A DNA stretch of 64,000 nt. Source: Isurus oxyrinchus (lineage: Eukaryota). The notes beneath the pieces were generated by a model that saw only the letters and a list, made by a program, of their open reading frames with translations, was not told the DNA's origin and searched no databases. A program made the position numbers and the translations under genes. The number at the start of each line of letters is the position of its first letter. The first letter of the stretch is position 1. The stretch spans positions 97,340,001 to 97,404,000 of the forward strand of contig JANJGN010000007.1 in the NCBI GenBank assembly GCA_026770705.1, given 5' to 3'. Shown one piece after another: positions 18,588 through 63,480 of the stretch.

Positions 18588-19619
18588 TAATCAGTACTTG
18601 ACTTCCTTGCTTTCACAGGCACCTCTGAGAAGCAGCTAAGGCAGCCCATGACCAGAATGCTCGACTCAAACCCCGCAGATATTTCGGAAGAAGGATCTGA
18701 TGACATCCCAATTGAAGACCTGTCAGAGCACTGACCCACACCTTCTACCAGCACAGGGACAAACATGTCATTGAGACGTAGCTCTAGTGTAGACTCGGGG
18801 TGCAAATCTGTTAAGCAGATATCTGATCCACAGCAGGCAACGAAGCAACTTTTCAGTTTTCTTGCACTTTGAGTACATCTGGAGGCCAGACACCCATTGA
18901 ATCCGAGTCATGCAAGGAGCATCTGGACTCTCAATTGGTCGCCAATTGGTCTCCTCAGCCATTAAAAGTCTGTGATTCTGTGATCTGTGATTACTGCATG
19001 GCAGGGGCTAATGGAACATGTCTCAGTTGCTTGATCTGCAAAGGAAAGCTCGGGAACATTAAGAAGGGATGTCTGGCGCACTCCTCGGATTTCAAGGCAA
19101 AATGTAGGAATCCATCTGCCTTCAGTCTGAGGGTCCAGGACATCGCTCTTCCACTGCTGCAAGGGCTGAACTCCATCACTGACATCATAGTTGGCCATCA
19201 ATAGTTTCAATACGAGAGTGGTGTAGGAATGCTCAATCTCACTCCAGCTTTCCTTTCTACTCAGGAAGGCCAGCAGGGGCCGTCAGCCGCTATAAGAGAG
19301 GAGGGTCGGCTGGTACAAAACCCAAGGCCATTAATCCAGTTGGCAACTCGAGTACCTGGTTCATCCAAATCCCCTCAGCCCGTGACTCCAGCCAGCAGCT
19401 CCAGCTCGACAGCCCGAAGTGAAGTGCCACTGCCACACAGCCAAACCCGGAAAGCAAGCTGGGGGCCTTCAGGTGTCGGGCCTCCATAGGACTCCCGTCA
19501 TCACAGGCAAGGACATCACAGGCAAGTTGCAACAGTCAGCAGGCGGCCTCCAGCTCAGCTGTGGGTGCCAGGGTAGCGCCAAGATGTAGCAGCAGGGTAA
19601 GTAAGCTTAAGATTATGTG

Positions 19620-22600
19620 ACTCTTTGGAGTCAAACAATTAAAATAATTTACCAAAATGAGATATAAGTTAAACGCAGTCGCTAAGTTAGAGTCATTGCA
19701 AAACCACAGGTTTAGAATATGGGGCTCTTTTTTTTAAGCCAACCAAATAAACTAAATTAACAAAATGAGAGATAAAATAAACACAGCCCCTAAATTAGGT
19801 GAACATGAAAAAAACAAAGACAAAGTTTAAAGAAAACTTACAAACGTCAAATCAAAATGTAATTAAGAGGGTCGATAAAGCACCCCAGCTGCCGTGGTGC
19901 CCACTGGGCATAGAAGGCCTCGAAGGTGCCGGCAGACAATGAATGCTCCCTCTCCAAGGACACACAGCCATGAACGTAGCCGTGGAAGAGTGGCAAACAG
20001 TCAGGTAGGACAACACACTCGATCACCTGCTGTCTGGACCTGTTGACGGCTAAATTGGCCTAGTCCAGCAGCAGTTTCACGAGGAGGTCCTCCTTCTGAG
20101 CCCCGTATCTCAGGAAGGATGTTCTAGCCCTGGGGAGGGTGCAGAGGAGTCCACAAGAACGATCTCAAGAATGAAAAGCTTAACATATGACGAACATTTG
20201 AGAACTCTGGGTCTATACTCGATGGCGTTTAGAAGGGTGAGGGACAATCTGATTTAAACTTACAGAATGCCGAATGGACTGGATAGTGTGGACGTGGGGA
20301 AGATGTTTCCATTAGTAGGAAAGACTAGGACCCAAGAGCACAGCCTCAAAATAAAGGGAAGACCTTTTTGAACAGAAATGAGGAGAAACCTCTTTAGCCA
20401 GTGAGTCATGAATCTATGGAATTCTAAGCCACAGAAGGCTGTGGAGTCCAGGGGATTGAGTGTATTTAAGACCGAGATAGGTTCTTGATTGGTAAGGAGA
20501 TCAAAGGTTATGGGGCGATGGCAGGAGAATGGGGTTGAGAAACATAACAGCCATGATTGAATGGTGGAGCAGACTCGATAGGCCAAATGGCCTAATTTCT
20601 GCTCCTATGTCTTATGCTCTTACGGTCTAACCAGCAAATTCTACAACTGTAGGGGACTGCTGCATGCAGCACCCTCCATCCCAGTTGCCCCATGGACAGC
20701 AGGAGGAAACTCTGTAGCAGGAATCCCAACAGGGACCTCCACCGCCAGATGGGAACAGAGCACGTCAGGGCTGGGCGGCAGGAGAGAGCAAGGAAGTGAA
20801 GGGTGTGCAGCAGCAGTCCACACAGGAAAGTCCTCCGCGCCCTGCTGAATGACACGGAGGGCAATTCTGTGAGGCAGCTCATATTTTTGCGGGTCACCAG
20901 CTCCCTAGGGAGGTTTCGGGTGCTCGGGGCCTATGTGCAATTCTGTCTGAACAGGGGCAAGCTCTGATGGAAGAACACTGTGCACCTGAGCCAATTCAAG
21001 ATCCAGTATGACATTAGGGCCGAGCACGTCCGTTTTGACGTCTTGAATGGCACCAGCCGTGAGCTGAATGCCCGCAGATGCACGCGCACCAACTCCTGTC
21101 GACGCAGCCTGCCCACTCGTCCGGCATCCAGCACATCCCCTATCCTGGTCCCACTAGCAGCGACAGCCCTCCTCTCTGCCAGCCTTTGAAATGGATGGAG
21201 GGGTTGGATTGCTGAGCAGTGGCTCTCTCAAGATAGCCGCTGCTCCTGACAGTGGAGAGCTGTGTCGCAAGATGACCATGTTCCAGACATTCATCAGGTA
21301 CTGGTAATAGATGGGCAATGCTTGCATGGAGCGATGAAGGCCCCTCTGGTCTATAAATACGAGCTGCACATCGTAATTGAGGCTGTGCACCTGGCAGAAG
21401 AAACACGTCGCTGGGGCACACTATCTTGGAGGAGGCTCAATGCAAATGTTTCGCTGCAGGGCGTCAAGCTGGAAAATCACCACCTGGTTGCTTAGGCACA
21501 CCAGCTCCTGATAGCCCTCCCTAAGCCGGAGACTCAGAACATCAGCAGAGACCCAGTGCATTCTTTTGACCTATAAGAAGTCGAAGAGCATTCTCTGGAT
21601 TTTCATGACAAATTCCAGGAGGAGTCAAAGTGGCCCGCTGGTACCACAACATAGCAGCAATCGCGTGGTTTATGACCAGAACCCGACCCCAGAAAGATAG
21701 CACTTGGAGCAGTCCTGTCCAGCACTGCAGGCGGGCAGTGATTTTCATCTCCAGTTCTTGCCAATTCGCCTGCCAGGATTCCTCAGCAGGGCACAGATGG
21801 ACCCCCAGGCAGAGGAGACTGGCCCTGCTCCAGGTGAAAGGCCAGAGCTCCTAGATTAGGGGATCTATCTGCTACTGGCCGTCCATGAGTCCAGAACATT
21901 TACCCCAGTTGATCCAGGCAGAAGGCGCAGTAGGGTAGAGCTCGTGGCAATTGCGCAGCCCCCGCCAGTCAGGCGGGTCATTAAATATAAGGAGCACATC
22001 ATCTGTGTAAGCCTAAAGGACCACGCCAATGCCCGGTCTATGCATAACCAATCCCAACAAACTCCTCCACAAGAGGCGCATGAAAGCCTACACCTAAATA
22101 GAATACAAAAGGCCAGACAGGGGGCAGCCCTGATGCACTCCTCTCCCAAAGCGAAGGGCTGCCATTAGGGTCCCATTACACTTAACTAGACACTCAGCGG
22201 CACTGTATAGAAGTCGGATCCAGGCAACAAAATGCAACCCAAACACGAATTCTGGCAGTGTTCCGATTAAATATTTGTGATCCACCCCGTCAAATACCTT
22301 CTCCTGATCAAGAGACACAAAGACGTTGGACAGAGCAGCCCTCTGGGAATAATGGACAATGTTTCAGACCAAATGGATGTTATCAAAAATGGTGTGGTCC
22401 AGGAGAGTAAAGGACTGGTCACCGTGGATCATGTGGTCCAGCACGGTGCCAAGCCTAGAAGCCATGACCCTGGCAAAAATTTAGTAATCTGTGCTGAGAA
22501 GGGACACCAGGCACTAGTTTTTTAGAAGGCAGAGATCCCCGTTCTTAGTCAGCCGGCCATTCACGGCCCTGCACCACGAAAGTGGCATCTCCCCAGTTGC

Positions 22601-25600
22601 AATACTTTCCCCCAGGACCCCCGCGTAGTCGCTCCCGAGGATGTCCCAGAATGCCCTGAACAACTCCACGGTGAGCCTCTCCAGCCCCGGGGATTGTCCC
22701 CTAGAGGCTGTCAAAAGTGCTGGTCAGCTCTGCCAGACTTATATGGGAGTCAAGCATTCCGGTGCCCTCCGGCCGACCTGCAGCAGGTTCTCCCACAAAA
22801 CTCTGTGAGCATCCTCGCTGGATGGATCCGGAGAGAAGAGGCCAGTATAGAAGGTTCTGGCAATAGCACTGACGCCCTCTGGATACGAGAAATGGGATCC
22901 GTCATCAACCAGCAGCGCAAGGAGCTGCTGACAGACCCTGTGCCTTTTTTCCAGCAAATAGCAGAAGGAGGAGCCATGGTCCAGGTCCTGGATAAACTGG
23001 ATCAGTGACCTCACGAATGTGCCATGAGGCCCGATGAGTTGCAGGTCCTGCAGATCACCATTCTTCTCATCGTACACTGACTGCAGGGCAGGGTACCCAT
23101 CGGGTTGATGGGGAAATGCCTCCATTTCGAGCACCTCCTTCTTCAATTCCTCGACCCTGGATTTCCACCTCTTTGACCACACCCTTGCGCACTCCTGACA
23201 GAAAACCTGGACGTGAGTATTGCCCAAGTCCAACCATAGACTCAGGAAGTGGAGGACACCGCAGTTCCTTCTCCAGACGGCCTTGAAACGACAAACCAAG
23301 TCCAGGAACCACTCGTCCTCGAGCAGCAGGTGGTTAAAGTGCTAGTGCGCAGATTCCGTCCGAGTGCAGAACGAACAGGGCTCTGCCCATACCAGATGGT
23401 TGTCTATGCATGGCACCCACCACACAGAAACTGAGGGAACGCAGGACACCTAGGCCCTTGAAACATAAAGGTGGTAGAGTTTGGATGCTACGACTCCAGG
23501 TAACACAATGGTGAAAATGTTGGAGTCAGGATGACATTTTGCCAGACATCCACCAAGTCAAAGGACCCGACCAGGACACACAACTTACTAACAACCTCGC
23601 TATGGTGCTGGGCACAGTGACAGTCCTGGGCTTCGAAGGTGCAGTTGAAATCCCGCTCGAGGACGAGTACTCACCCGCGTCAATGGAGCCAAGATCAGCG
23701 GGCACTTCCTCAAAGAAGCTCGCCTGCAGCTGCACGGCGAGGGGAGCAAACACATTCACAAAGTGAAGTGCCGCATCCCCCAGGTGCACACTAAGGTGCA
23801 GCAACCAGCCTGGCATTAGCTCCTTGATCCCCAAGAACTCCAGCTGAAAATGTGGGGCCAAAAGGATAGCCACCCCACCAGAATTGGAGGCAAGGTGACT
23901 AATGTAGACCTACTCTCCTCGCCTCCAGGAGCCAAGTGGCTTTGCTTCCTAGAATGGTTTGGGTTTGCCACAGGAAGCACAGAGCATACTTCATGTCCCA
24001 GAAGACCACAAAGTTCTGGAACCTGCACTGTGTGGCACTGCTGCGGATGTTGAGGCTGGCTATGATAGTCTTCATTCTCACAAGTATGTGCAACCATCAC
24101 CTGAGATAAAAGAAGGAGAGGACTTTTGTTAAGCCTTCCTCTCCTTCAGGAGCCCAGCGGGAAATGTATGTACCCTCCAGCGCATGTTCCTGTCCAATTT
24201 GGTGATCTTGTGTGCCTCACGAGTGGACCAGAACACCAGCAGAAAAGAATACCAGCAGTGCAGGGCCAAATGAACTCTGTCTCGGTGACCACAATGCTCG
24301 GTAAAATGTCCTGGAGCTCCCATACAGGGATGAGAGGAGAGTGAGCTGGGGGCACCAGATGATCCACCACCACACCCGATATCGACTCTAGGTCATCCCT
24401 GGTGCTCACCACTGAAACTCCGTCGTTCTCCAGGTTGTCGCCTCCAGCTTCCAAACCCTCCACCATATTGAGTACAGGGGCTGGTATACAGCTGCCAGTC
24501 AGCTCCAGCTCTACCTCGATTCCACCCACAGGATCAAAGCCAGAGGCGTCCTCTCTGGTCTCCACTATAGGTTTTGCGTCAGAGGGCAGTGGCATTTCGG
24601 AACCCGCTCCCCACCTGCACCGCACACCCCCCAACCACCCTGCCAAAGCCACTGGGTCATCCAGCAAGCTCAGGAGAAGCTCCTGACCTAAAACAAGGAT
24701 GCACAGTGCTAAAGGTTGGGAGGGCACAGGACGGCCTTCTTCACCACCACTACCCAATGACCCACTTGTAGAAATTAAAAATGGGGTGCCGTAGACCCCG
24801 ACGGGCCAGATAATATCTCGGGGTATTAAGTGGGTCTTTGAGTGGAACCTCCTCAAGGGAGGTACCCAGAGTGACCACCGAGGGGCCCTGCTCAGTGGAC
24901 TGCGGCAAGGTGTTGTGGGAAACAATAGGGACAGGGGAGTGGGGTTGCCCCAGATGGATGAGTGAGGATTTCAATTGTGGAGATGCCACCACCGATTCAC
25001 CAGGGGAGGGGAAACACCCAGCCTGTTCAGCCTGGATGTCCCCCTCATCCTCTTCCTCCTCCCAGGAGTGACATCTCTTCTGGAGTAGACTGGGGGCACC
25101 TCCATTTGTGAGGCCTCCTCCACCTCGTCAAGCCCTCCTGGATGCTCCACCCTCTGGGGTTTGGGCAAGTTCACACTTTTTAACAAGACCAACACCTTGG
25201 GGTCCCTTGTATCACCACCGCTGGCCCCGGGAACACACACAGAGACGACGCCGGGCCTAGCATATTGCACTTCAGCACACATGGCCTGGGAGGATGCACA
25301 GAGATGACACCGGGGCCGGATGTTTGAATTTCCCCCGAGGAGGTGTCTTCAAGGCGTTAGAGGTTCGAGGTGTTCTGGGGGCTTTGGGGAGTCTCGGGGG
25401 CTGCCCTCAAGTTGCGGGACTTCCTCTGCGTCCTCCTATGGCCCAGGACCTCTTCCCTCACCTCAATGGCAGCCGAGATGGTGGTGGCTATCAGCGACAC
25501 CTTCCATTCCTGGGAGGCAGATTGAGTGGTAGTGGAGGGAGGACCAGCGGTGCCAGCTGTGGCTGCTTGGATGGAGTTGGCATCTCTGGAGATGAGACAG

Positions 25601-27140
25601 TTTTTCTAAGGTACTCCACCTCCTTGAAAGCATGGAACCTCATGCCATCCGCTGTCGAAAAGACCCGGTAGGCAGAATCCTCAAAATCTATTGAAAAGAG
25701 CACCTCCATGCACTCCACTCGGGCCAATCATTTGAAAATCTGGCGCCAGAAGGAGGACACGTGGTGGAGGGCCGTGTCTTGCATGCCGAACAGGATCGTG
25801 CCTACCCCAGACCTGACGTCCTCCATTTGATGGAGGTGGGGAGCAGGGGCTCACTGGAGACAAAAGGTGGGACATTTCATATTTTGAGTCTCTGGGAGGT
25901 GGTCTCAAGGTGGTCCACCGCCAGAAAGGTCCTGTCCACAGTGAGCCCCTTTTGCAGGGCCAGGTGCACCATCTGCTCGGACCTCCAGAAAAGATGGCTT
26001 TGCCGCACATCTTTGAGGTGGCGACTGTGGCTGAGGATGCCGATGACCCCAGCCATAGCCCTTACACATGCCTCAATTGTCATCTCGGAATGGGTGTAGC
26101 CCTTCATCCCAAAAGCATTGGTGAAGATGCGGAAATGTGATGGGGCCCTGGGAGCAGCAGGGGCCACAGAAGCAGCTGCCCCTGGTAGGTTTCTCTGGGG
26201 GTCCCCACCATCGGTGATAGCACCATCTCCACACTTGCCCTGGAAGACCCGGCCACAGGTGACCCTGTTGTATTTGTCTTAGGGGCTGTGCCATACCCAC
26301 CCCAAGAAGTATTTGTAATAATATTAATAATTAATGGCTCTGTGCCACCCTGAGGGAGAAGTGGAGAAAGGTAGCTTAGCCTCCCCCTCTGAGATGTTAG
26401 TAGAGGAGTGCAGAGGAGGGAGAGGGGTAGAGGAGAGAGAGGCACAGGAGGAAAACGGGAAGGTATAGGTGGGTACCTTGATGGGAAATGAATGACAGGT
26501 GGGGGCCTTGATGATCTTCTGTCAGGGGGAGGGCGATGTCTTCACCATGCAGCCGGTACTGCCTGAAACACAGGACTAAGGCCTGCCCCTCTTTACCAGG
26601 CAGCACCAGCTGCCAGGCTCAGGCTGAGTGATATTCACTGATGGAAAAGGGGGGAGGGGTCGTGGCAAGATTTTACAGACAGACACAATCACCCTTTTTT
26701 CTCCTCCAAGTCTCTAGGGCTGTCTTCTGCCCTCCACCTACAAAACACAGCCCCCACTTGAACAAATATAATTCCAGACAACCACCTAGGATGTTTGAAA
26801 CACAGTCCTGGCCTCCTGGCCTCCCTTTCCAGTAGCAGCATTAAACACAGCAAACAGGAGCAGCAGCAGCTCTTCCTCACTCTCTCTCTCCTCCTTCCTC
26901 TGCAGGCCCCATAGAATGCCTTCCAGTCTCCAATTCCCCTGGCAATGGAAGGTAATGGTGATGATAACAAAACAGAAGGCTTCTTGAGGCAGGCAGAAGA
27001 ATTGGAATAATAAAGTAGTAGTATTCACTAGCAGGCAGGAGCACAAAGCCAGAGCACCCTACTCTCCTCAGTCTCTGGCTGCAACTGGAGCAACAACGAG
27101 CAGGACACGTGCCACAGGTGAGAGCAATCGAGGAGATGCA
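19620..27140 (-). mobile_element. Near full-length Tx1-clade LINE (ORF1 about 24100-26300; ORF2 APE-RT about 19860-24080), frameshifted
   Basis: APE IASLNIR; RT SLDQEKVFDGVDHKYL, GVHQGCPLSGLLY, SPGLERLTVELFRAFW; Tx1-type ORF1 MTIEACVRAMAGVIG. Confidence 0.88.
20100..20630 (+). mobile_element. CR1 3' end inserted in Tx1 ORF2
   Basis: CR1 3' UTR ending cctaatttctgctcctatgtcttatgctcttacggtct. Confidence 0.85.
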
Positions 27141-35513: not shown

Positions 35514-35580
35514 ATGTCAGCATTGGATTTGCCGTCGTACCTTTCGGTCCTAGGCATTATTTATATAGGTTTATGCACAG
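35514..35580 (+). CDS. Exon 1, signal peptide MSALDLPSYLSVLGIIYIGLCT
   Basis: ATG followed by a hydrophobic stretch and a phase-1 donor cag|gtgacc, 176 bp upstream of the V exon acceptor. The donor is somewhat weak. Confidence 0.65.
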
Positions 35581-38500
35581 GTGACCTTTCTAATAAATAG
35601 ATAAGTGAACAACAACTGTGTAGAGGCCTCTTATGTTGAATGTTTATTATAAGATTTTCCATTTGATTTTGTTTTATTTCGTACTTATTATATCCGTATC
35701 TATAATAATGATCATCATTATCTCCGTCTGTAAACCATGCTCTTTTTTTATAACAGTGACTGACGGGTCCTCTCTATCAGTTCGCCAGCTCCCCATCCGT
35801 GTGACGGTGGTCAAATGTGTAAATGTGTCAATTTATTGCTCCATCCCACTTTTCGATCGCAACACATGGGTGGATGTTTATTGGCGGAGAGACAGCCAGA
35901 AGGGGATTTTGGATTTGATTGCAGACACAACGAAAATAATGACACCTTTCAGACAGGGATCTGCCGAACTCCGCCTGCTAAATGTGAATTTCCAGGACTC
36001 CGGAGTCTATTATTGCAGCGCCAGAGTGAGCGGGAGGATTTCCAATGGGAATGGAACGGAGTTAATTGTATACGGTGAGTGTCACTGAGCTGCTTTAACG
36101 GGTGTAAACTTATACAGCTGTATTTCAGAGCACATTTAATGAAAAGTCACTTTTCCCTCAGTTCAGTTAATCCTGTCTGTGAACGTACAGCTGTCGCGTA
36201 GAGCCAACATTGGAACTAAGAATATCTGACTTCGGACAATCATTGTTCTCAAATCCAGTCTCACTTATTCAAATAACTCAAATATGTTTAAATGTTTTCA
36301 AAGAATGCGGGCGTCTTTGGCACACCCAAGATTCATTGCATATTCGTACTTCTTCTTGATAATGTGGTTTGGTGTCGTTATCTCGAATCGCTGCATTTGG
36401 TATGGACAATGGTTTAACACCGTGCTCTGAGCTATGGTGAAATTGCCGCATTTTGTTATCCCGCAATGATGAAGGAACGGTGATATATGTTCTAGTCAGC
36501 ATTCCGTGCGTACTGGAGGGAATTTGGAAGTGTTGGTGTTCCCATGTGGTGTTCTGCCTTCACTTTCTATGTGATAATCTCACGGACTCGGGAGGTGGTG
36601 TCGAAGAATCTTTGGCGCGTATTGTAGTGCACCGCAAACACGATGCCCCTACAGTGAAATGAGTGAGCGTTTCAAGTGTTGGATAAAGTGCCTTCAATGG
36701 ATTTGTTTTACGGGATCGTATGGAGTATTGTTGCATCAATATACATCCAGACCGTAGTGAGAATTTCATCACACTCATGAGTTGTAGGTGGTGGGGACGC
36801 TTTGAGGAGAGAATACTTGAGCCACTCATTGTAGTACATAAAGCCTCTGACCTCTTCCAGTAACGATCGCATTTTAATGGTCATTTGTTTTGCATAATTA
36901 TAATTGGAAAATGTTGGGTGTGCAAACGTTAATCTACGTTAAAACAACTATGGCAAAAAGAAATAGACGCGCATCAATCTCTCAATGAAATCCTGTTTGA
37001 ATCATTGCATCCAATCCTCTTATCGCCGAAGAATTGAAATCCACTGTATTTACAAGTGCCCCAGAGTTTAATACCATTTCCAGATTACAAGGGAATGTAA
37101 TGTGTGAATTGATAGCAAGTGTATGTAAATGTTAAAAATAGAGGGAAGAGATACAGGGTAGTGTGGCATAAAATAAATCAAAGTTGTAAAAACAAAGCGC
37201 CGTTACAACGCCGGCATTAAACAGAAGCATGATTAAATGAATGGTCATAATTGCTGATACCAGGTTTTATATATATATATATATGCTGATAGGTTTGAAA
37301 GTAACAATGATGACATATTTGCTTGCATCACCTATTGCATTTGCACAACCAGGTTATTTTCACAATGTTAAGACATTACAGTTGCATTCACTGATTAGAT
37401 TTACATGGTCATGCATTGACCATTCTGCTTGCACGAATTGGAGATCAAACATGCAAATCATCTTCCGACTAGGCACCTTACAGCCTTCCGGACTGAATAT
37501 TGAATTCAACAACTTTAGGTCGTGAGCTCCCTCCCCCATCCCCACCCCATTTCTGATTCCCCCTTTCTTTTTTTTTTCCAATAAATTATATAGATTTTTC
37601 TTTTCCCACCTATTTCCATTATTTTTAAATATTTTAAAATCTTTTATGCTCTCCCCACCCCCATTAGAGCTATACCTTGAGTGCCCTACCATCCATTCTT
37701 AATTAGCACATTCGTTTAGATAATATCAACAACTTTAACTTTAACACCTATGTGTTCTATTGTACCATTGTCGTTGACATCTTTTGATGATCTGTTTCTA
37801 TCACTGCTTGTTTGTCCATACAACCACCTCTCTCTCTCTCTATCTCTCCGCCCCCCACACACACACCTTAAACCAGCTTATATTTCAACTTTTTCTTGGA
37901 CTCGAACTCAAGTTCTGTCGAAGGGTCATGAGGACTCGAAACGTCAACTCTTTTCTTCTCCGCCGATGCTTCCAGACCTGCTGAGTTTTTCCAGGTAATT
38001 CTGTTTTTGTTATGCACTTATGTTAATTTGTTGGATCAAATTACAGTAAGTTATATGATTGCAACTATGATTTCCATGATTAAATGCATAGTTGATGACT
38101 GAAAATGAGATTATTCAAGCACTGGAGGGGGAACATTTCAACAAAACACCATCAGTGATGATAAAATAATAAATCTCCCATGTCAAGTGGCCCGCCTGCG
38201 GGCTCAATCTGAGACTCTAGTAGGATAGCACCGGTAAAGGCGAAGTATCTCGATTCAGCTTCTGAAGGTCACGCAGGAGATTGATTCTGTTAATGTAATA
38301 ATTACTGAGATACTGTTTAACATGCAGTCGGGGGTAACGCTAGAAGTCGAATGGGATCACTGTCTGATAGCTGGAAAATTTCAGAGATTGAGTATGTTGT
38401 GAACTCAAAGGTAAAACATTCCTGATGAAGCAGGAAGTGGTTTTTAACGTTACCGTTTGTTTCAGCGAGCGCCGGCGAATGGAATGGGTTAGATCTGCGG

Positions 38501-41500
38501 ATAGGAGAATGGAGGCGAGTTTCTGAAAATAAAATACTGGATTATGAAAGAGGGTATTAACGATTAGAAGTGGACTAGTCGGTGTTACTCCAATAATTCG
38601 AGTTCAACTGTTACCTCGGCAGTCTGATTGAGTTTGGAGTGATCAAAAAAGAAATTCAAGGTTTTGCAAGCAGTGCGATGTCTCGGAGCCTTGCTACATG
38701 TGAAATTATTAATCAAACGAACATGGTAAGTTTAAGTAGAAAGCGAACAAACTGTCAGCGGGCCTGCAGGAGATGAAAACAGCACGCGCTGGAAACGCTT
38801 AGTACGCCTAACAGCAACTGTGCAAAGGGAAACAGAGTTAACGTTTCGAGTCGAATATGACTCTTCTTCGGAACGATAGAGTAGATTGGGTGTGCTGTGA
38901 GTTATGTGGTCAATTGCACAGGACCCTGAACCAAAACTCAAAGGTATGCACAAAATTCGACGGTTCAACAGAAATATAGTTTAACCCGCTTCATCAGTTA
39001 TTCAATAACACTGCTCAAGAAGCACCCCGATCCTGAATTGAGAAATTGCTGTGAACGTATTGTTGACATTCTATAGTTGTGTTGGCGATTGCTAAACCCG
39101 GTTTCCTTATGCCCTCCGACATGCGTCAAGCACCCAGTAACACTCCACCACGTTTATTCGGTGACAATGTAAGTGCTGACCTAGGTTTGTCTGGAAATTC
39201 AGCGCCAGTAACTTGAGGGAAGTGGAAGGAATTTGCTTTACCGAGACGGTGCTCTGCTGGTGATTTGCACCACGGTGTGTGTGCTTATCATTAAGGAAAA
39301 TAATGACGTTGATCTATAGATTAATTTCGCGAAATATTATGGTTCAGAGAGGCATCGCACTCTACATTTGGCTGTCTAAAGCCATTGACTCGGCCGCAGT
39401 TGTAGCAGTGCCTATGAATATGGGGTATAATGAGGCAAAACAGAAGTTACAGGGTGCATTTACTTATTGAAATTTGGTTTAAATACTGTAGATCAATCAT
39501 GATTAAAGGTAATCCAAAAAGAAGGGTTTTCAGGGCGTTATCATTGGTGACAAAGGTCCGTTAATTTAGATTTGCTGGATAAACTGGGGGGGGGTGGTGG
39601 TGTTAGAAGACAAGAAGACAATTTTTACTCAAAGATGAATGATACCATGGCATAATTAAGCCAAGGCATGCTGGAGGATATCACATTGGGTGGGGTGGTT
39701 GTGGGATCAGTGTTGAATGAGATAAACACTTCAGGAGAAATATTAACTAATGTTGAAAATGGCACTTTAGCGGAATGGGGTAGAGAGCTTACAGTCCAGC
39801 TGTCAAGGCGCCTTTCTGTCTTAAACATCTGAAAATTAACGGTAAAGTAAATATGGATGTACTTAGAGCACCGAGACAATTAGTTCAACGAATCATAGCG
39901 AATCAGTGATGCGTTACCACATAGAGATTCGTAATGTCTCAACAAAGCTTGAACCAGAACCTCGGGGAATTGGATTACCCCTATGGAATGCTGGACACGT
40001 ATTTGCATAAGTGCGCAATACTAGGATACCGGCTTTTTAATATTCTGTGGCCTAGTTATCTTGTTATTTATGATAACTGAATTGCAATGAAGGCTTGACT
40101 TTATTCACACTGAGCACTAACTGGGATCAAAGCTTAGATAAACTCTCGCAAATGCATCAATCACGTTAGCATTGCTTTCGCCAAGTTCGCCCTGGACTGA
40201 AATAGCAACGGATTGTGTTCGATGCTAACAATAATGATAATAATATAAGCTGTGAAGATGAATTACATCAAGTCATGTCACCGTCTAGGAAGTTTGAAAC
40301 CCATATGAATTGACGGCCAATAACTGTTGGTCTTGTCAATGACATCTAAACCCCATAAGTGAGGGAAAACAACAGCAAAAAGAAACAACACCACAGTGAA
40401 ACACCCGCATGGAATTTTAAGCCATCGGACGGACTGATTCTGCTAAACGGGGTCCGAAATTGGATTCAATCCGCTGAAGTGGGGTCTCACCTCAACCAAT
40501 GTTGGATGAGGACAAATGAAAGGAACATTGTGATGTACTTCTTCATGCAATAAAATCTCTATTGCAATGAAGATTTCCTACTACAGGAATACTCCAGTGC
40601 GAACTGATTTCCTTTTCCATTTACATTTGATAGCTTTGCAAACCTGTCCTGATGAGTTCAAGACGAAAGGTTTCATCGAAAAGCATATCTTTTTTCAGCA
40701 GTGCTCAATATATAATTTTGTTCATTTTCTAATGGAATGTGCAAGTAGCGATTTGATCGATTTCCTTTAAATCCTTTTTCAGTGCCACCAACACCGGTGA
40801 AGATTACTCGCGTTTCCTCTACCTTCCTCAAAATCCTCTGCACAACAGCTGGCTTCTTCCCGAAGGAAATTAACCTCACGTGGTACAAAAATGACATCGA
40901 AATTACAACTGGGATGAAAATCACGGAAATACAGAACAAGGGGGGATTATATCATGTTTCCAGCTTTCTCAATCTCCCGGAGGCCGGATCGGTTTATACC
41001 TGCCAAGTTTCACACATCTCCCTCGAGTCCCCAGCCAATGACAGTTATACGGTTCGTAGTCAGGGTAAGAGATTCAGATTAGCAATACCCTCGTGAAATG
41101 CAGCTGTGTTTAACGTCCCGCGGAAAACTTTATATCCCCACTAATGTGCACCAACGGATTTTAATAGTGTGATTATGAAGGACGTTGATGCGCTTCTTAC
41201 ACTGTATTTTCTTTTCGCGAGGTATTAAACAAAATATCACTATGTAAATTTCAGCTGCGTCTGATTAGAATAAAGACCGTGGTTTGAATAGCAAATTGGT
41301 TTCATCTTCATAGAAAGAGGGTAGTCATTGATCGTAGTGACCCTGTATGCAGGACGGCTACTAATTGGTCCCTTTGGCCAAAGCGATAAGACTCATTGCA
41401 TTTCACGATTACCACTGATGTTCTGGATGGAGCCGTTGGTAATATCTCTGATGGTGCACAAATATTTTCTGAGACACATCGAAAATGATTATGATTTGAT

Positions 41501-44500
41501 TTAGATGCGATCAGGGCATGGGTTTGCATCTGGCAGATTATATTAGCGTACATATTGCAGAGGAATATTCGTGAGTAGGTTTATTGCCAAGTTGTATATA
41601 GTGTGCTGGGATCTGAGATAAAATAAGTCAAAAGAGAAAGTGATCTGAGCGCAATTGCGTATGGAAATTTAAATGTCTACAATCACTGTCAAGTGGTTGG
41701 AGCCAAAATTCAAGCATTGGTTTCTCTAACAGGGCCAAATCAAGAAAAGATTTATCAAATGTCCCTATCTTTTGTCCATCCTCATCTATCAGATCATGGC
41801 CTGTTCAGGATCATTTTTTTAAAATTCCCCTTTGTGTTTTCTGTTGAAAGTGATCATTTCCACATCAGAACCTTCCTCAGCCTCTAAGATCCCATTTTAA
41901 CTTCCAGCTTTTAAGCTGATGCTCTCTTTCTCTTTCCTTTCTTATTTCCCCCAGTGCTAACTGTAGCCAGTTCAAGGTGACTCAAAAGTCATAAGTATTG
42001 GGGCACTGGGTGAAAACATTCCAAAGAGCATTCGTAGGTTGGTATCTGGTTATGCTCATTTCTAGCTTAGAATGGCATAAACCTGAGGCGGGTGAGGGCA
42101 GAGGAAGCTAATTTTAATTGCATAATGACTGGCTGGACTGTGTACACGGAGATAGAGGACACATTTAAATGAATGAATGGGGCATGTCATATCCAGACAG
42201 GGTTGTTTTAGCTTGCATTATATAAGCCTTCTGCCAAAAGGCTCGGGCAGTAAGTGCATATTAGCTGCAAGTGCTTTAAAAGACCTGGGCTAGTTTCTAT
42301 AATCGGTCTATAACCAAGAATTATTGAGAACAAAAGGAAGCTATTTGGTCCATCGTGCATATGGAAACTCGTTTAAAAAGTTATGTATTTAGCCCTACTC
42401 ACCCAGTCTTCGCGTTGCCTCTTAAGAATTAGCCCTCCAAGTATTGATACAATGCCCTTTGAACGTTATTAGTCACTTTGCTTTCAGGCAGTACATTTCG
42501 GATCACAGGATCACAGCGTGGAATAATAATTTTCCACATGTCCTCTCTGCATGGCTGCCATCACTTCTGAGCCGTGTCCTCACCTTACCGACCCAGCTCC
42601 AATAAAACTGTTAATTAATTAAAGCACCTCTATAAATTAGATTGTTCATCATCTTTAATTCATGAAAAACATCTTACCTCCACTGGTCTCTCCAAAATTA
42701 AAATCCTATATCAGAGTTATCATCTGAGTAACATGTTCTACACTCCCTCTAACCCCCAACATCCTTCTGTAAACGCAATGCACAGACTTCGAATCCATAT
42801 TCCACATAAGAGCTAACGAGTGTTTGAAAAACATTAGACATAACTCCCTTTGCTTCAAACCCGTTTACTCTATTAGCAAAGCCACTGATCCCACGCTTTT
42901 ACAGTTTTCTGAACCTGTCCTACCGCTATGAAACAATTGATTATATCTACCACACCACTCTGATCGAGAGCACCATATAGGTTATATAACATACTTCATA
43001 CTGCCTCTTCACATTCTTGTCACCAAAATGCACCATTTCACATTTCTTCATTAAACTTCATTTTCTACGTGCCTACCTAATTTAACAATCGTCCTATGCA
43101 TGCCTGGAATCTGTTAATCGCTCCCTCACTGTTTGCTAATTTTCTGTTTAAGCTTATCTGCAAGTTTGATATTATACACAAGGTTGTGTCATTAACATGT
43201 GAAAAACATAGAGCTGTTCCTAATATCAACCATTTTGTAACACCAGTGCATGCCACTCTCAGTTTACCGATCGTTAGCAAAATGTATATCCAATGTGGCA
43301 CCTTCTCTTTAATCTCCCGGGTGTGAACTGTGCGAAGGTTACTTTAAGGAGCCCTACTGACGGTAACAACATATCAAATCAACTACACGATCTTCATTGA
43401 CCGTCTCAATTATTATAACGAATAATCCAGCAAGCTAACCGAACCCTATTTGCCTTTAACAGTTCTTGCTCACCTTCATTTATCTGCCCATGCTTTTCTC
43501 ATAAATGTCAACTAATTTTGTCCTGGAGCATTGTATTTAAAAAGGTTCGGCTGAGATAAGGCTGTCTTGCCTGCAGTCATTAACAGTACCCTTCATCTCA
43601 TTTATTTAAACAGAGGCGCAATACTTGCATTCATCGAAGCCCCTGATGTGACTCCAAAATCCAATGTTGTGATTAGGGACAGATCTGAAACTCAGCAGTT
43701 ACCTCAGAATAATGGGCTTGTACACAAAAGGCAAATGGAGCCCTAAACGGCAGATGGGATCTTGCCTGATATACCAGATGGTCAACATCATCGAATTGAA
43801 GTCAAATATCATTGCCTTAGGATAATGTTCTTTGTTTTAATTTCTGGAATTGGCACAGTATTTTTATTTGAATGCGTTTGGGTGTTTGCTGGTACAATGA
43901 TACAGAGAGAGAGGGAAGTACATATACATGGTAAAATCCACACGCATATAATCAGGGACACAGGATGAGCAAAGCTATATAATTATTCTTTAGGATTTGG
44001 GAATTATTCAAAATGAAAGTTGCTGATTGTCACACACAGATAGTTCATTTCTGAATTACCATTGATGCACGTTAGTAGAATAATGCTTCTCCAATAAAAT
44101 GTCAGGATGAAAGAAACCATTAAGATTCCTTCGTAGCTCCTTCAGGGAGGATAGATGCAAGGTGTTGGGTTGCCTGTGATGTTGACGTTGTTTCATATTT
44201 CGACACTTTTTTCTCTGTACAATGCGAAGGTGGTTATCCCTACACCTTGGTAACTGGATGTGCAGTCGGCGGGTTAATAATCCTTGTGCTGGCAATTCTC
44301 GTCATATGTTGGAGATTGGCCACGACTGAAGGTAAGTTCTGACACGATCTTAGTTCAGAGTTATCGTCTAATTGTTGTTTAACGTTTCAATAGCGGGAAA
44401 CTTCAAATGTCCAGGCTGGGATTGAGGTTTCCAGAGCACTCCCGATTGCATGGAGAGCAATTGCCCTTCCAGGCACAGTGTTGTGATGAGGGAGGGCGTA

Positions 44501-46256
44501 AAACGCAACACACCCACCAGAATAATTAAACACATTTCGATATTAAATCGAACGGTATTTCTGTTCTTTATGGGAACTAAACGTTCTACATTAAATATGA
44601 CTAAGGTTGGAGCAGAAGGAGGGTGCAACCTTCTGGTAAAAATCTTGAAGTATGTCATGCACTTAAGCAAGCTGTACAGTGGGCCCTAAAGCGTAATTCC
44701 ATTTGACGCTGGACTCATAATACCGAGGTCCAGAATAATTATTTTGAGACCTGGGTTCGAATTCCACCGCCAAAGATGGTGAAATTTGAATTAAGTAAAA
44801 ACCTGGAATTAAAAGCTCTGATGATAACCATGTAATCATTGTCGATTTAAAAAACGATCTTGTTCACTAATGTCATTTCTGGAAGGAAATCTGCCACCCT
44901 TGCCTGGCCTGACCCACACGTGACTCCAGACCCTCAGCAATGTGATTACCTCTTAAATGCCCCCTGAACAAGGGCAATGCCCATATTTCATGAACGCATA
45001 ACAAAGGACCCAGCAGCAAAACGGGTTGCGATTTTGGACTGAGGGCGCGTCTCGCCCCTTTGCTCAAATTTTGGGTAACTTTTGGCGGACTTGTCGCTCA
45101 TGTACTTCACGCTGACTTGCATTGTTCATGTATATTTCAAATAGGCACAGAGATTACAGAGAACATACCGAACCAGCTTGAGGAGCAGGTCAGTTTTACA
45201 CTGATGATACATTGAAATGCACTGAACGTCTACAGCATAGAGATAGCAATACTCCTGCGGCCTCAGAAAAGCTTCGACTTACGATGGAACAAGGGGCGAA
45301 CACTGCCAATCTCTGTTTCTTTTTCTCCCTGTCTTCTGCACCTGTGACATTGCGGTGAATGACTAATCAGGGCTACAGCGTTACTCATTTCACGCAATCC
45401 TCCTGTTCTCGCAGTAACCTGTGTTGATGTTTGCACCCTTTCAATATTAGTTGGACAGCTATCAAATGCGTGAAATATCCTACTCTAGCTCTAACCTGTT
45501 GCCATCGCCACTCCTGCCTTTAACGTTGTATGCGGACCCTCTGTGTTTTAACCAGGGCTGGCGCCTTGAGCGGAAACATCCAATCTGTGCGAAAAGCCAC
45601 TCAGGCCAAATGCATTTTCTGAAATTTGCATAGTCAAATTTTAGACATGCGTTAACAGGTCAGTAACACCACGAGTCATATATTGGCAATTATTGCATAC
45701 ATTGCAAGTATTTGGCCTAACAACATGGATAGCGCCTAAAGGGCTTCCACTAGCAATCAGTTCTACTTATATAAGTATTCTTAGATAGATAATGCTACTT
45801 AAAGCTCCGACCTACGCTAACCTACACTAAAAATGGTTACATCCTTATAAGGCATCTGTGGTATGTTTGTGGTTCTGTACCATGTTTATGTAATTTGATA
45901 TGCATCTAGTATTTCTCCAAAATCTCTCTTCAGGTTGTTCATGGAGAAGTGATGGGTAGTCCGCCTTATGCTGCTCTCAACCACAGCGAGCACGGAAATG
46001 CCTTGAAATCCAGATGTGTGGAAGGGGGCCCCATCCGTGTACAGGTACTTACGGAAATCATAACGCTCCATCCCAAGCATTAGCGTTCACTTTCTTGTCT
46101 CCAATGTCAGCAATGTGCATTCAGAATCTGGAACCAGTAGTTTGCGTAGAAGGTGCCACTGATCTTTCATTGTTGTTTTCACAGGCCATGCAAGATACAG
46201 GAGTTAAACTGACTTACGCGTCTCTAGATTTCTCCGCTTCCCAGAAAAGTGCATAA
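35514..46256 (+). CDS. Six-exon VJ-C1-TM-ITIM immunoglobulin-superfamily receptor (SIRP/NKp30-like), 294 aa; join(35514..35580,35757..36074,40783..41064,44230..44331,45145..45188,46185..46256)
   Basis: All introns are GT-AG with phases 1,1,1,1,0. Exon lengths 67+318+282+102+44+72=885 nt give one open frame, with domains in the expected order for a type I membrane receptor. Confidence 0.85.
35757..36074 (+). CDS. Exon 2, V-set Ig domain with J-like G strand
   Basis: Acceptor tcttttttttataacag-type tract ending at 35756; motifs VRQLP, SIYC, VYWRR, AELRL, DSGVYYC, GNGTELIV; phase-1 donor g|gtgagt. Confidence 0.95.
37425..38010 (+). mobile_element. Penelope-like 3' fragment in intron 2, with hammerhead-like motif at 37911-37949
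   Basis: IFRLGTLQPSGLNIEFNNFRS* followed by a terminal repeat nearly identical to the hairpin arms. Confidence 0.9.
38770..38875 (-). mobile_element. Short Penelope-related fragment with hammerhead-like motif
   Basis: Reverse complement reads gttCCGAAGAagagtcatattcgactcGAAAcgttaac. Confidence 0.6.
40783..41064 (+). CDS. Exon 3, C1-set Ig domain
   Basis: Acceptor tcctttttcag; C1 motifs ILCTTAGFFPKEINLTWYKN, GLYHVSSFL, YTCQVSHISL; phase-1 donor g|gtaaga. Confidence 0.95.
42320..43670 (-). mobile_element. Old CR1 3' half in intron 3
   Basis: Degenerate CR1 3' end and RT-like sequence. Confidence 0.65.
44230..44331 (+). CDS. Exon 4, transmembrane segment GGYPYTLVTGCAVGGLIILVLAILVICWRLATTE
   Basis: Not in the ORF track. 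It starts at the first AG after a polypyrimidine tract, has about 22 uncharged residues followed by WR, and ends at a consensus phase-1 donor g|gtaagt. Confidence 0.88.
44690..45000 (+). mobile_element. tRNA-derived SINE (resembles shark DeuSINE/SacSINE1 type) in intron 4
   Basis: B-box gggttcgaattcc at about 44753 and core gttcactaatgtc..ggaaggaaatctgcc..gtgactccagaccc. A related fragment lies at 54415-54530 (-). Confidence 0.7.
45145..45188 (+). CDS. Exon 5, short cytoplasmic exon GTEITENIPNQLEEQ
   Basis: tttcaaatag acceptor and cag|gtcagt donor. Its 44 nt convert phase 1 to phase 0, exactly as required to join the TM exon to the ITIM exon. Confidence 0.75.
46185..46256 (+). CDS. Exon 6, ITIM-bearing terminal exon AMQDTGVKLTYASLDFSASQKSA*
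   Basis: Strong acceptor ttgttgttttcacag, phase 0. LTYASL (46209-46226) matches the ITIM consensus (I/V/L/S)xYxx(L/V). Confidence 0.88.
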   Translation, partial: AMQDTGVKLTYASLDFSASQKSA

Positions 46257-47369
46257 AGGGAACAGAAGAAAATTGGGGCTGAGTATGCAGGGATCAAGAT
46301 AAACAAGCCAAACGGAGAATCTTTTGTTGTATGAGCAGTATCAATGTCCGGTGATGTTGCAATTACACCGGCCCTGCCATAATGGTGTCTGAATGCTGCA
46401 ATTAACAGTGTGTTGTTCATTGATCGTAAACGCATTGCCATGTATTGGACTTTGGATAAGCAGCATGAGATTTACAGACAGAAAGACACGGGTCACTGGA
46501 CATGTGCATATTGTTGAAATCTGAAATCCCTGTAAGATAAAATAATCAAAGAAGCACCTGTCAGTAAGATATAATAATTGTCCTAATATTACTGGAATTT
46601 ATCGTAAAATCGTGTAATAGCAGGATGTGCCTATTTGTGTGATTTAATGGAATTCGAGGCAGCTAGTCTGGTGCTTTGATGCAAAAAGCGAAGCTAACTT
46701 TGAAATGTTAATGAGGTAAACATGGAGAAGTTTGAAAACATAGATATCAAGGGGAAGGAACATTTACATTTTTAAATAAGCCAGAGTAGGTTGTTTTCAA
46801 AGGATGGGAGAAATGTTTCACCCAGCTAGGTGAAGTTTAGAAACAGTGTGTTTATTTTTCCCTAAGCTATGACAGGTGTTTTTTTATTATCAGGGTGATA
46901 AAGTCCAAGGACAAAGTGAAACGATTCGTATTTGCATTCAAAATGGAAGATGTCTATAAATGAGAGAAAACTGCTTACAAATGAAGACATTTTGAAGATC
47001 TTGCATGTATGAAAAAGTATTCAGCATCTTTGCCTTAAGCTGCTGTTTCCAGGTCTGAAGTGAAGGGAACTCACTTTGAATTCGACTTGCTCAGCATACC
47101 ATGCTTCTTTGCCTTGACATTTTAAAAACTATGTCTCTTATTGTCACCTTAACGAAAGTATAACTGGGAACTAGATTGATTAGGAGAATTTAGAATTTAT
47201 CATAGTAGTAATTTTTAGATCTATGATTGTATTTTACTTAATTATCTTACTAATATATGTTTAATTTACTTGTATCAAAAATATATATGACTTGGTGGTC
47301 TTATTACTACTGAATTCAATGTTCACCTTTCGAAATTTATGTGAACTGCAAAGCAAATTGTGGCAGTTC

Positions 47370-60570: not shown

Positions 60571-63480
60571 TACACACCTCCACATATTGAAGAGCAAATA
60601 TGTGCTCAATTTGTGGAGGTGTGTAAAAACAATAACAATTGGGTAATTATATTGGGTGATTTCAACTTTCCCAACATTAATTGGGATAGACATAGTGTTA
60701 CAGGTTTGGATGGAGTGGATATCTTATAACGTGTACAGGAGAATATTTTAGGTCAATTAGTAGAGGGTCCAACAAGGGACAATGCAATGCTAGACCTAAT
60801 TCTGGGGAATGAAGCCAGACAGGTGGTTCAGGTTGTGGTGGGCAAGCATTTTACTGATAGCGACCACAACATGATACAGTTTAAATTTGTTGTAAGACAA
60901 AGAAATCGACAAGCTGCAAAAAAAAGTGTTTTGAATTGGGGGAGAGTGGATTTCAGTAAAATATGGGAACAGTTAATTGTGGTGAAATCTACAGAGGAAC
61001 AGTGGGGGGCGATCGCACAGGAAATGGGGAGGGTATAGGCTCAAAATATTCCCTCTAGGATAAAAAGAAGGAGTAACAAGCCCAGAGAACCATGGATGAC
61101 CAGGGATATTCAGCTTACCATGGGAAGGAAAATACAGGCTTTTAGCAGGTACAAGGAAGCTGTAGAGGCATTAATGGAGCACAGAGAGTGCTGGGAGGCC
61201 CTCAAGAAAGCAAAGAGGGGATATGAGAAAGCTCTGGCTGGTACATTTAGGGAAAAGCCCAAGATATTCTATAAGTATATCAATGGGAAACAGATAACAA
61301 AGGAAAGAGTAAGGCCCATAAGGGACCAAGGGGGCAATCTATGGGTGGAGCCAAAGAACATCACTAGAGTGTTGAATAAATTCTTCACATCCATTTTCAC
61401 CCAAGAGAATGCGGGTGAAGGTATCAAACTTGGAGAGAGAGACTGCGAGGTCTTTATGCAAACTGATATAGGGAGTGACAAGGGATTGGAAGTGTTGGCA
61501 GGCTTAAAAGTGGACAAATCTCCAGGTCCCAGTCCCTTGAGGGAGGCAAGGGAGGAGATCGCAGGTGCTCTGACTAAAATGTTTAATTCCTCTCTGGCCA
61601 CGGGGGAGGTGCCAAAGTACTGGAGAACAGCTAATGTGGTTCCGCTATTTAAGAAGTGTAGTAGAGATAAGCCAGGGAACTACAGGCCGGTGAGTCTATC
61701 GTCAGTGGTAGGGAAGCTATTGAAGAAATTTCTGAAGGAGAGAATCTATCTCCACTTTGAGAGGCAATGTTTGATCATGGATAGTCAGCATGGCTTTGTC
61801 AGAGGGAGGACATGCCTAATAAATTTAATTGAATATTTTGAGGAGATGACCAGGTGTGTAGATAACGGTAGCACAGTTGATGGAGTTTATATGGATTTCA
61901 GCAAAGCCTTTGAAAAGGCCCCACATGGGACACTTATAAAGAAGGTAAAAACACATGGAAAATAGGGTAATTTGATAAGGTGGATTCAAAATTGGCTTAG
62001 ATGTAGGAGGCAGAGGGCGATGATAGAATGATGCTTTAGTGGCTGGAAGCCAGTATCCAGTGACGAACCACAGGGATCAGTGCTCGGTCCCCTCTTATTT
62101 GTTAATTAACTAAACGACATATGTGACTATGTGGGGGGTAGGATTAATAAGTTTGCGGATGGCACAAAGATTGGCCTGTGGTTAACAGTGAGGTTGAGTG
62201 TCTTGGGCTACAGGACAATATAGAGTGGATGGTCAAATTGGCAGATAAGAGGCAGGTGGAAATTAACACTGAAAAATGTGAGGTGATACAGATTGGAGGA
62301 AGTAATTTGACAAAGAATTATTCAATGAACGGGCATGGCACTAGGAAATTCTGAGGAACAAAGGGACCTTGGTGTGTGTGTCCATTGATCTCTGAAGCTG
62401 GAGGGGCATGTTAGTGGGGTGGTGAAAAAAGCATTTGGGACTGTTACCTTTAACAATCGAGGCATAGACTACCAAAGTGGGGAGGTCATACGGGACAAAA
62501 ACAGAATTACCTGGAAAAACTCAGCAGGTCTGGCAGCATCAGCGGAGAAGAAAAGAGTTGACATTTCGAGTCCTCATGACCCTTCGACAGAACTTGAGTT
62601 CGAGTCCAAGAAAAAGTTGAAATATAAGCTGGTTTAAGGTGTGTGTGTGGGGGGCGGAGAGAGCTCTCTGTCTCTCTCTTTCTCTCCGCCCCCCCACACA
62701 CACACCTTAAACCAGCTTATATTTCAACTCATTCTTGGACTCGAACTCAAGTTCTGTCGAAGGGTCATGAGGACTCGAAACGTCAACTCTTTTCTTCTCA
62801 GCTGATACTGCCGGACCTGCTGAGTTTTTCCAGGTAATTCTGTTTTTGTTTTGGATTTCCAGCATCTGCAATTTTTTTGTTTTTATCTCTGAGGTCATAC
62901 GGGAGTTGTATAGTACCTTGGTGAGGCCATAGCTGGAGTACTGCGTGCAGTTCTGTTTGCCACCTTATAGGAAGGATGTGATTGCACTGGAGGGGGTGCA
63001 GAGGAGATTCAACGGCATGTTGCCTGGGATGAAACACTTAAGTTATGAAGAGAGGTTTGATAGACTTGGGTTCTTTGCAGTGATGCAAAGAATGAGGGGT
63101 GACCTTATCGAGGTGTACAAGATTATGAGGGGCGTGGACAGGGCAGATAGGGAGCAGCTTTTCCCCTTAGTTGAAGGTTCAGTCACAAGGGTTCATAAGT
63201 TCAAACTGAAGGTCATGGGGATTAGGGGGGCTGTGAGGAAAAACTGTTTTACCCAGAGGGTGGTGATGGTCTGGAATGCACTGCTTGGGAGGGTGGTGTA
63301 GGATGGTTGCCTCACATCCTTTAAAAAGTAGCTGGATGAGCACTTGGCACGTACTAACATTCATGGCTATGGGCCAAGTGCTGGTAAATGGGATTCGGTA
63401 GGTAGGTAAAGTATTTGTCACGTGCCGGTGCAGACCCGAAGGCTCGAAGGGCCTCCTCTGCACTGTGATTCTGTGATTTT
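60571..63480 (+). mobile_element. Younger CR1, most of ORF2 plus 3' tail
   Basis: ILGDFNFPNINW; 289-aa ORF with PGNYRPVSLSSVVGK, SQHGFVRGR, YMDFSKAF; tail ctgtgattctgtgatt. Confidence 0.92.
62496..62890. mobile_element. Second fold-back Penelope-like insertion (hammerhead-like motifs at 62556-62594 - and 62750-62788 +)
   Basis: Inverted arms of about 165 bp meeting in a GA/TC tract; exact 14-bp TSD gaggtcatacggga (62482-62495, 62891-62904). Confidence 0.92.

Follow-up and report, generated by a model that had tools for sequence, protein, structure and literature searches.

Among the closest described systems is SIRP-alpha (SHPS-1, PTPNS1), which, like the gene described here, combines a V and C1-type immunoglobulin (Ig) ectodomain with one transmembrane (TM) segment. 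According to the accessible part of the source, SIRPs have three extracellular Ig domains, and the SIRP-alpha tail has about 110 residues with four tyrosines (PMC12066663). The tails of PD-1, BTLA, and G6B-b carry an ITIM followed by a second tyrosine motif, an order shared by the ancestral tail of our gene. The consensus sequences are given as S/I/V/LxYxxI/V/L for the ITIM and TxYxxV/I for the ITSM in the available text of PMC8631942, and CD28/PD-1 family members are described as having a single extracellular V domain (PMC11599192, consulted in excerpt). The same kind of partial source describes the CD300 and KIR genes as birth-and-death clusters in which copies stand in tandem, some have premature stops, and the ITIM motifs vary (PMC12447643), and UrIg and PRARP as non-rearranging VJ-C1 genes (PMC10751288).

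The window analyzed here, a stretch of 64,000 nucleotides (C7:97340001-97404000) inside a 4.98-Gb shark genome, contains a plus-strand gene with seven exons for signal peptide, V domain, C1 domain, TM segment, and tail, all of them open with GT donors and AG acceptors. Its spliced frame runs for 331 amino acids to a TAA and for 357 to a downstream TGA. From its signal-like exon, hydrophobic segment, and tail, the product is predicted to be a type I membrane protein whose TM segment has no charged residue. The features of the gene are as follows.

35514..35580, plus strand: exon 1, ATG and predicted signal peptide; open, with GT donor; 21 of 22 residues equal the N-terminus of basking shark protein P0001
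35757..36074, plus strand: exon 2, Ig V-set domain with a J-like end joined and an extra Cys in the strand B region; Pfam V-set E 3.9e-09, AG/GT ends; the Cys is absent from the paralogues compared
40783..41064, plus strand: exon 3, single Ig C1-set domain; Pfam C1-set E 6.9e-15, the sole C1 match within the gene
44230..44331, plus strand: exon 4, predicted TM segment with a hydrophobic core lacking charged residues, acceptor AAG; from a hydropathy scan and a match to white shark protein P0007
45145..45188, plus strand: exon 5, first tail exon; splice joint in the X17 contig
45934..46044, plus strand: exon 6, with Y283 (PPYAAL, codon 45967-45969) and CGT (Arg) at 46036-46038 in place of the family's second tyrosine; splice joints in X17
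46185..46256, plus strand: coding part of the last exon, phase 0, with the canonical ITIM LTYASL (46209-46226); X17 joints and spliced frame, ITIM consensus from the available text of PMC8631942
46254..46256, plus strand: derived premature stop TAA; AAA in the sister species, AGA in paralogues g2, g4, and g6, TGA in g3
46257..46334, plus strand: 25 formerly coding codons, now 3' UTR, with AEYAGI (46278-46295) and the ancestral TGA (46332-46334); from relatives and paralogues

A contig of run X17 from the related species B contains the joints 45188>45934 and 46044>46185 at GT..AG ends, which confirms the last two introns and sets the last exon in phase 0; the RNA status of runs X16 and X17 is a program guess. 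These joints rule out a frame artefact through wrong splicing. A loose end of the same contig joins the 3' end of exon 4 to exon 5, and we infer the 5' boundary of exon 4. In g3 and g6, the TM exon extends four codons further at its 5' end than in the window gene, where it starts at AAG (window 44216-44229); the site of the g3/g6 AG reads TG in the window gene by anchor count, the alignment being ambiguous there. The basking shark model P0001 skips the TM exon, and the model of white shark P0007 begins only within the V domain and lacks its first half. Besides the extra cysteine, the first half of the V domain (exon 35757-36074) differs from P0001 and g7 by about six further changes.

White shark P0007 and basking shark P0001 are the nearest named proteins and group with the window gene at 100/97 and 100/98 support in a tree made of cartilaginous fish sequences alone; the ectodomain is close to P0007 (end branch 0.0087 versus 0.024). 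The organism is probably a mackerel shark. The same exon plan and tail modules are found in the predicted chondrichthyan V-C1 receptors P0004, P0006, P0007, P0010, and P0016 (automatic names "PTPNS1-like," "tapasin-related-like," and "NCR3LG1-like"), from which the window gene differs in its tail, where the second tyrosine is missing and, in this species, the fourth as well. Although RefSeq names many relatives "PTPNS1-like," we do not file the gene as a SIRP because it has two Ig domains, encoded by a single V and a single C1 exon, rather than three; P0007 and P0006 also pass from C1 straight to the TM segment. Matches in the PDB include SIRP-alpha (E 1.2e-12), with UrIg2, antibodies, CD276, and B7-H6 scoring alike. 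In the tail, relatives P0004, P0006, and P0010 resemble SIRP-alpha in having 110 residues and four or more tyrosines, whereas the window allele has two tyrosines. It also differs from the single-V CD28/PD-1 family in having V plus C1. A protein search with the P0006 tail matched only P0005 and P0006, and a literature search, whose coverage excluded most subscription journals, returned no paper on this shark V-C1 family or this allele.

The premature stop and the frame behind it

Translation reproduced the frame reported in the preliminary description (46209-46334), with TAA at 46254-46256, AEYAGI at 46278-46295, and TGA at 46332-46334. Over the 25 codons past the TAA, the alignment with the coding C-termini of shark proteins P0007, P0006, and P0004 is free of gaps, and two paralogues also align gaplessly over them and stop at the same TGA. 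The proteins of the horn shark and the sevengill shark have the same 23-residue tyrosine pair and end at the homologous stop. Because of this gapless match to the coding C-termini of relatives, the downstream frame is not a product of chance; in orthologues it is conserved coding sequence.

At 46254, the sister species B has A (codon AAA) in all four runs counted, which come from four samples and four studies (run X12 lies outside this count), and its letters reproduce the tail of P0007, whose protein model keeps the AEYAGI motif. Seven of the 24 runs listed were compared with the window; none of the 24 is recorded as RNA, and X21-X24, of species A, matched almost none of its sequence words. 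The codon is AGA in paralogues g2, g4, and g6 and TGA in g3. Given AAA in the sister species and AGA in three paralogues, the T is a derived, lineage-specific nonsense change, AAA>TAA by a single A>T. A recent change of just this kind had been proposed from the window, together with a search for a sense codon in orthologues and paralogues, which was thus found in both. Assembly error is unlikely, since short-read contigs carry the T; contigs drop variants, so heterozygosity or polymorphism at 46254 would not show in them.

Between species A, that of the window, and species B, noncoding divergence is 4.0%. In the tail, they differ at 4 of 67 synonymous and 3 of 233 nonsynonymous sites, a ratio of 0.22 (Fisher p 0.046) that leaves out two stop-codon changes, a gain in A and a loss in B; with both counted, P is 0.083 against the noncoding rate. 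The ratio suggests that the tail was constrained for most of the time since the split, and the changes as a whole are consistent with a working gene under loosening constraint, a weak signal from small numbers. Species B has lost the ancestral TGA at 46332-46334 (TTA in 4 of 4 runs), a loss also seen in P0007, which makes its tail 15 residues longer; the tail end was thus altered in opposite directions in the two species. The 75 bases after the stop show no change assignable to the window lineage, where 1.5 would be expected and none has a P of 0.22 at the neutral rate; the intact downstream frame therefore needs no selection, and a test for selection on these bases has no power.

An in-frame CAG at 46263-46265 raised the question of whether splicing, by a mini-intron or alternative acceptor, might bypass the TAA, but this was rejected: the tract upstream is purine-rich, and no joint was found among the contigs, which show presence rather than absence. 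A pyrimidine-rich in-frame CAG at 46242-46245 in the last exon could be a cryptic acceptor that skips the ITIM. The X16 contig of species A starts at the same place, 46245, which may be a coincidence. No spliced transcript from species A was seen among the contigs compared, and the contigs run unspliced to 46455 (B) and 46483 (A).

Tail tyrosines and predicted SHP recruitment

The tail of the family has four tyrosines in two modules. In the window gene, the tyrosine of the ITIM has number 319 and the distal one would have number 342, the distance of 23 codons counted in the preliminary description, which had linked it to the spacing at which the SHP-1 and SHP-2 tandem SH2 domains engage paired motifs. 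This distance proved to be the family norm: of 51 database proteins scored, 35 have the next tyrosine exactly 23 residues after the last ITIM, 4 have it at 19 to 22, and 12 lack it, a count that includes isoforms and in which at least 3 of the 12 missing cases are mis-picked motifs. The corresponding tyrosines of PD-1, Y223 and Y248, are 25 apart according to the part of the literature available to us. The TAA trims the last 26 residues, including the conserved distal tyrosine. The family's second tail tyrosine, Arg in the window gene, is TAT in all three paralogues aligned, and no difference of species B is listed there, so it had been lost by the time A and B diverged.

The short tail thus retains two tyrosines, Y283 in PPYAAL and Y319 in LTYASL, 36 residues apart. 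Only LTYASL fits the ITIM consensus, as the preliminary description had it in speaking of a single-ITIM receptor, but the upstream YxxL at Y283, which is noncanonical with Pro at -2, had been overlooked. The likening of AEYAGI to the distal motifs of SIRP-alpha and to the ITSM holds in part: it is a conserved distal tyrosine motif, but strictly it is neither an ITIM nor an ITSM because it has Ala at -2, where PD-1-type ITSMs have Thr. P0004 and P0006 also have Ala at this position, and other family members have Thr.

As a general rule, an mRNA with a stop codon in its last exon escapes nonsense-mediated decay. As the TAA lies in the last exon, its mRNA would do so, and a surface receptor of 331 amino acids would be made. 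After phosphorylation by Src-family kinases, the ITIM at Y319 could still dock one SH2 domain. The standard 23-residue pair would be gone, and with a noncanonical YxxL 36 residues upstream as the only partner left, inhibition would be weaker, the loss of the distal tyrosine probably hitting SHP-1 harder than SHP-2. In the portions of the sources available, SHP-1 requires both motifs of G6B-b while SHP-2 binds with one (PMC3501490), and SHP2 activation depends on linker length (PMC10231330); by analogy, weaker SHP recruitment and inhibition by the short tail are likely. Counting against this are reports, likewise available in part, that SHP-2 can bridge the single ITSMs of two PD-1 molecules (PMC7078208) and that CD300A, as long as its third ITIM is intact, is affected to a limited degree by losing two others (PMC12447643).

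On balance, we find it somewhat more probable than not that the A>T stop, by trimming 26 codons, weakens two-point binding of SHP-1 and SHP-2, likely as a loss that is tolerated while the tandem cluster decays and not as an adaptation. The short and long tails, versions of one gene from species whose noncoding sequence differs by about 4%, form a natural pair for gauging the distal tyrosine's share in SHP recruitment.

The surrounding cluster and competing readings

With about six further copies next to it, the window gene makes up a tandem cluster of about seven, and most of these are damaged. A C1 search of the genome gave 109 matches with two dense groups on C7. At C7:96.4-97.6 Mb and 108.6-110.1 Mb lie two large clusters of V-C1 receptor genes, several of them broken, whose tails are built of tyrosine modules; for their relatives in chimaera, rays, and sharks, all names are automatic ones. 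Locally, the C1 of g2 is broken and its last exon has lost one base, g4 has a frameshifted V, g5 has stops in V, and the C1 of g7 lacks its second Cys; no TM segment or tail of g7 was found in the sequence examined up to C7:97,634,900. Of the roughly seven copies, g6 alone looks whole as far as its exons were located, which the signal exon was not. As far as checked, the signal, V, C1, TM, and tail exons of g3 (C7:97,448,800-97,459,150) are open; where the window gene has its TAA, g3 has a TGA, and it keeps three upstream motifs. It also has a TAG just past the distal motif, in common with g2.

Of 17 final ITIM modules found across the genome, 5 are interrupted by a stop ahead of the partner tyrosine, with eight linker stops in all; the 17 are a lower bound, sought within 10 kb after 40 C1 matches and in the local cluster, and leave out modules in upstream exons and one partly deleted module in locus L064. 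Tail trimming is thus common in this gene family in this genome. Together with the apparent wholeness of g6 alone among the local copies, this makes a tolerated loss likely. The setting resembles the CD300 and KIR clusters, although CD300C is inactivated by stops, in the available part of PMC12447643, whereas the stop in the window gene lies in the last exon and trims the tail end alone.

Decay may have gone further, so that the receptor is a pseudogene in progress in this species, unused, and the stop is without consequence for signaling. The broken neighbors g2, g4, g5, and g7 would agree with this, as would the oddities of the lineage, namely, the lost second tyrosine, the shorter TM exon, the extra V-domain Cys, and the stop loss in species B, and the models of P0007, starting within the V domain, and P0001, lacking the TM exon. 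However, the 331 codons and the splice sites are free of lesions, species B has a spliced contig and the tail ratio is 0.22, and a contig of species A, from RNA by the program's guess, covers the 3' end. We regard this outcome as unlikely.

Weaker signaling by the short tail would also not follow if the ITIM were dominant and the upstream YxxL or receptor clustering gave the second docking point, leaving function about unchanged. In favor, Y283 is retained 36 residues before Y319; LTYASL has Ala at pY+1, which is favored for SHP1 in the available text of PMC8631942; single-motif bridging and a dominant ITIM are known from PD-1 and CD300A in the partial sources cited above (PMC7078208 and PMC12447643); and the catshark proteins P0002 and P0011 and the epaulette shark protein P0161, predicted models that may be mis-spliced, also lack the distal motif. 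Against it stand the wide conservation of the 23-residue partner tyrosine, which extends over chimaera, rays, and sharks, and the Pro at -2 of Y283, a noncanonical site. An unchanged function therefore seems quite unlikely to us.

It is also conceivable, though we think it improbable, that the truncation was favored, the removal of the distal tyrosine being a recurrent way of tuning receptors down. Selection would then act on tail length to adjust SHP recruitment in a large SIRP-like family that cartilaginous fish have and that is apparently undescribed, a doubtful proposal that rests, with equally slim prospects, on two otherwise intact paralogues cut by different stops at the same codon and on the loss of the motif by other routes in other sharks. 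For a linker stop, the chance of the codon shared by the open g3 and the window gene is about 0.04 to 0.08, calculated post hoc over one-step routes, and among 17 in-clade rows of the tree, 5 have an ITIM without its partner, 7 keep the partner, and 5 are unscorable. However, two linker stops also fall at +15 (the clearly decayed L057, and L068), as two do at +13, and of the 15 modules without a stop at codon +13, 13 read AAA, AAG, or AGA at it and so are a single step away from a stop; the database models may moreover be mis-spliced. This genome-wide control weakens a same-codon hotspot, and the stop codon shared by g3 and the window gene may be taken as a lead, not a result.

An error of sequencing or assembly, raised as an alternative from the start, is scarcely credible: a contig of run X3, probably the source sample and hence not independent, spans 45110-46720 in one piece with 0 differences at depth 40, and the X16 contig of species A, which comes from a separate sample and study, likewise shows 0 differences (46245-46483), although it is the only non-source run of this species compared over the site, with a depth of 2.2 and the T as its 10th letter, near the contig end and short of the 31-letter bridging rule, and so gives weak support. 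Ribosomal readthrough of the TAA into the long tail, the other alternative raised at the outset, is extremely improbable as well: the 25 downstream codons are still open, with no change assignable to this lineage, but zero changes in 75 bases are unremarkable at the neutral rate, UAA is the tightest stop and +4 purines favor termination (shown for UGA) in the accessible part of PMC5829715, and in place of a conserved leaky stop there is a TAA followed by A, with a sense codon in the orthologue.

As it stands, the stop adds one more motif loss in an immune receptor cluster of fast turnover, of interest mainly for shark immunogenetics. The larger lead is the family itself, with dozens of V-C1 genes, two clusters, and modular 23-residue tyrosine pairs from chimaera to rays and sharks. 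Elsewhere in the window, positions 19200-27100 and 60700-63300 are GC-rich and bear open reading frames with endonuclease- and reverse transcriptase-like words, and they resemble decayed LINE-type retroelements.
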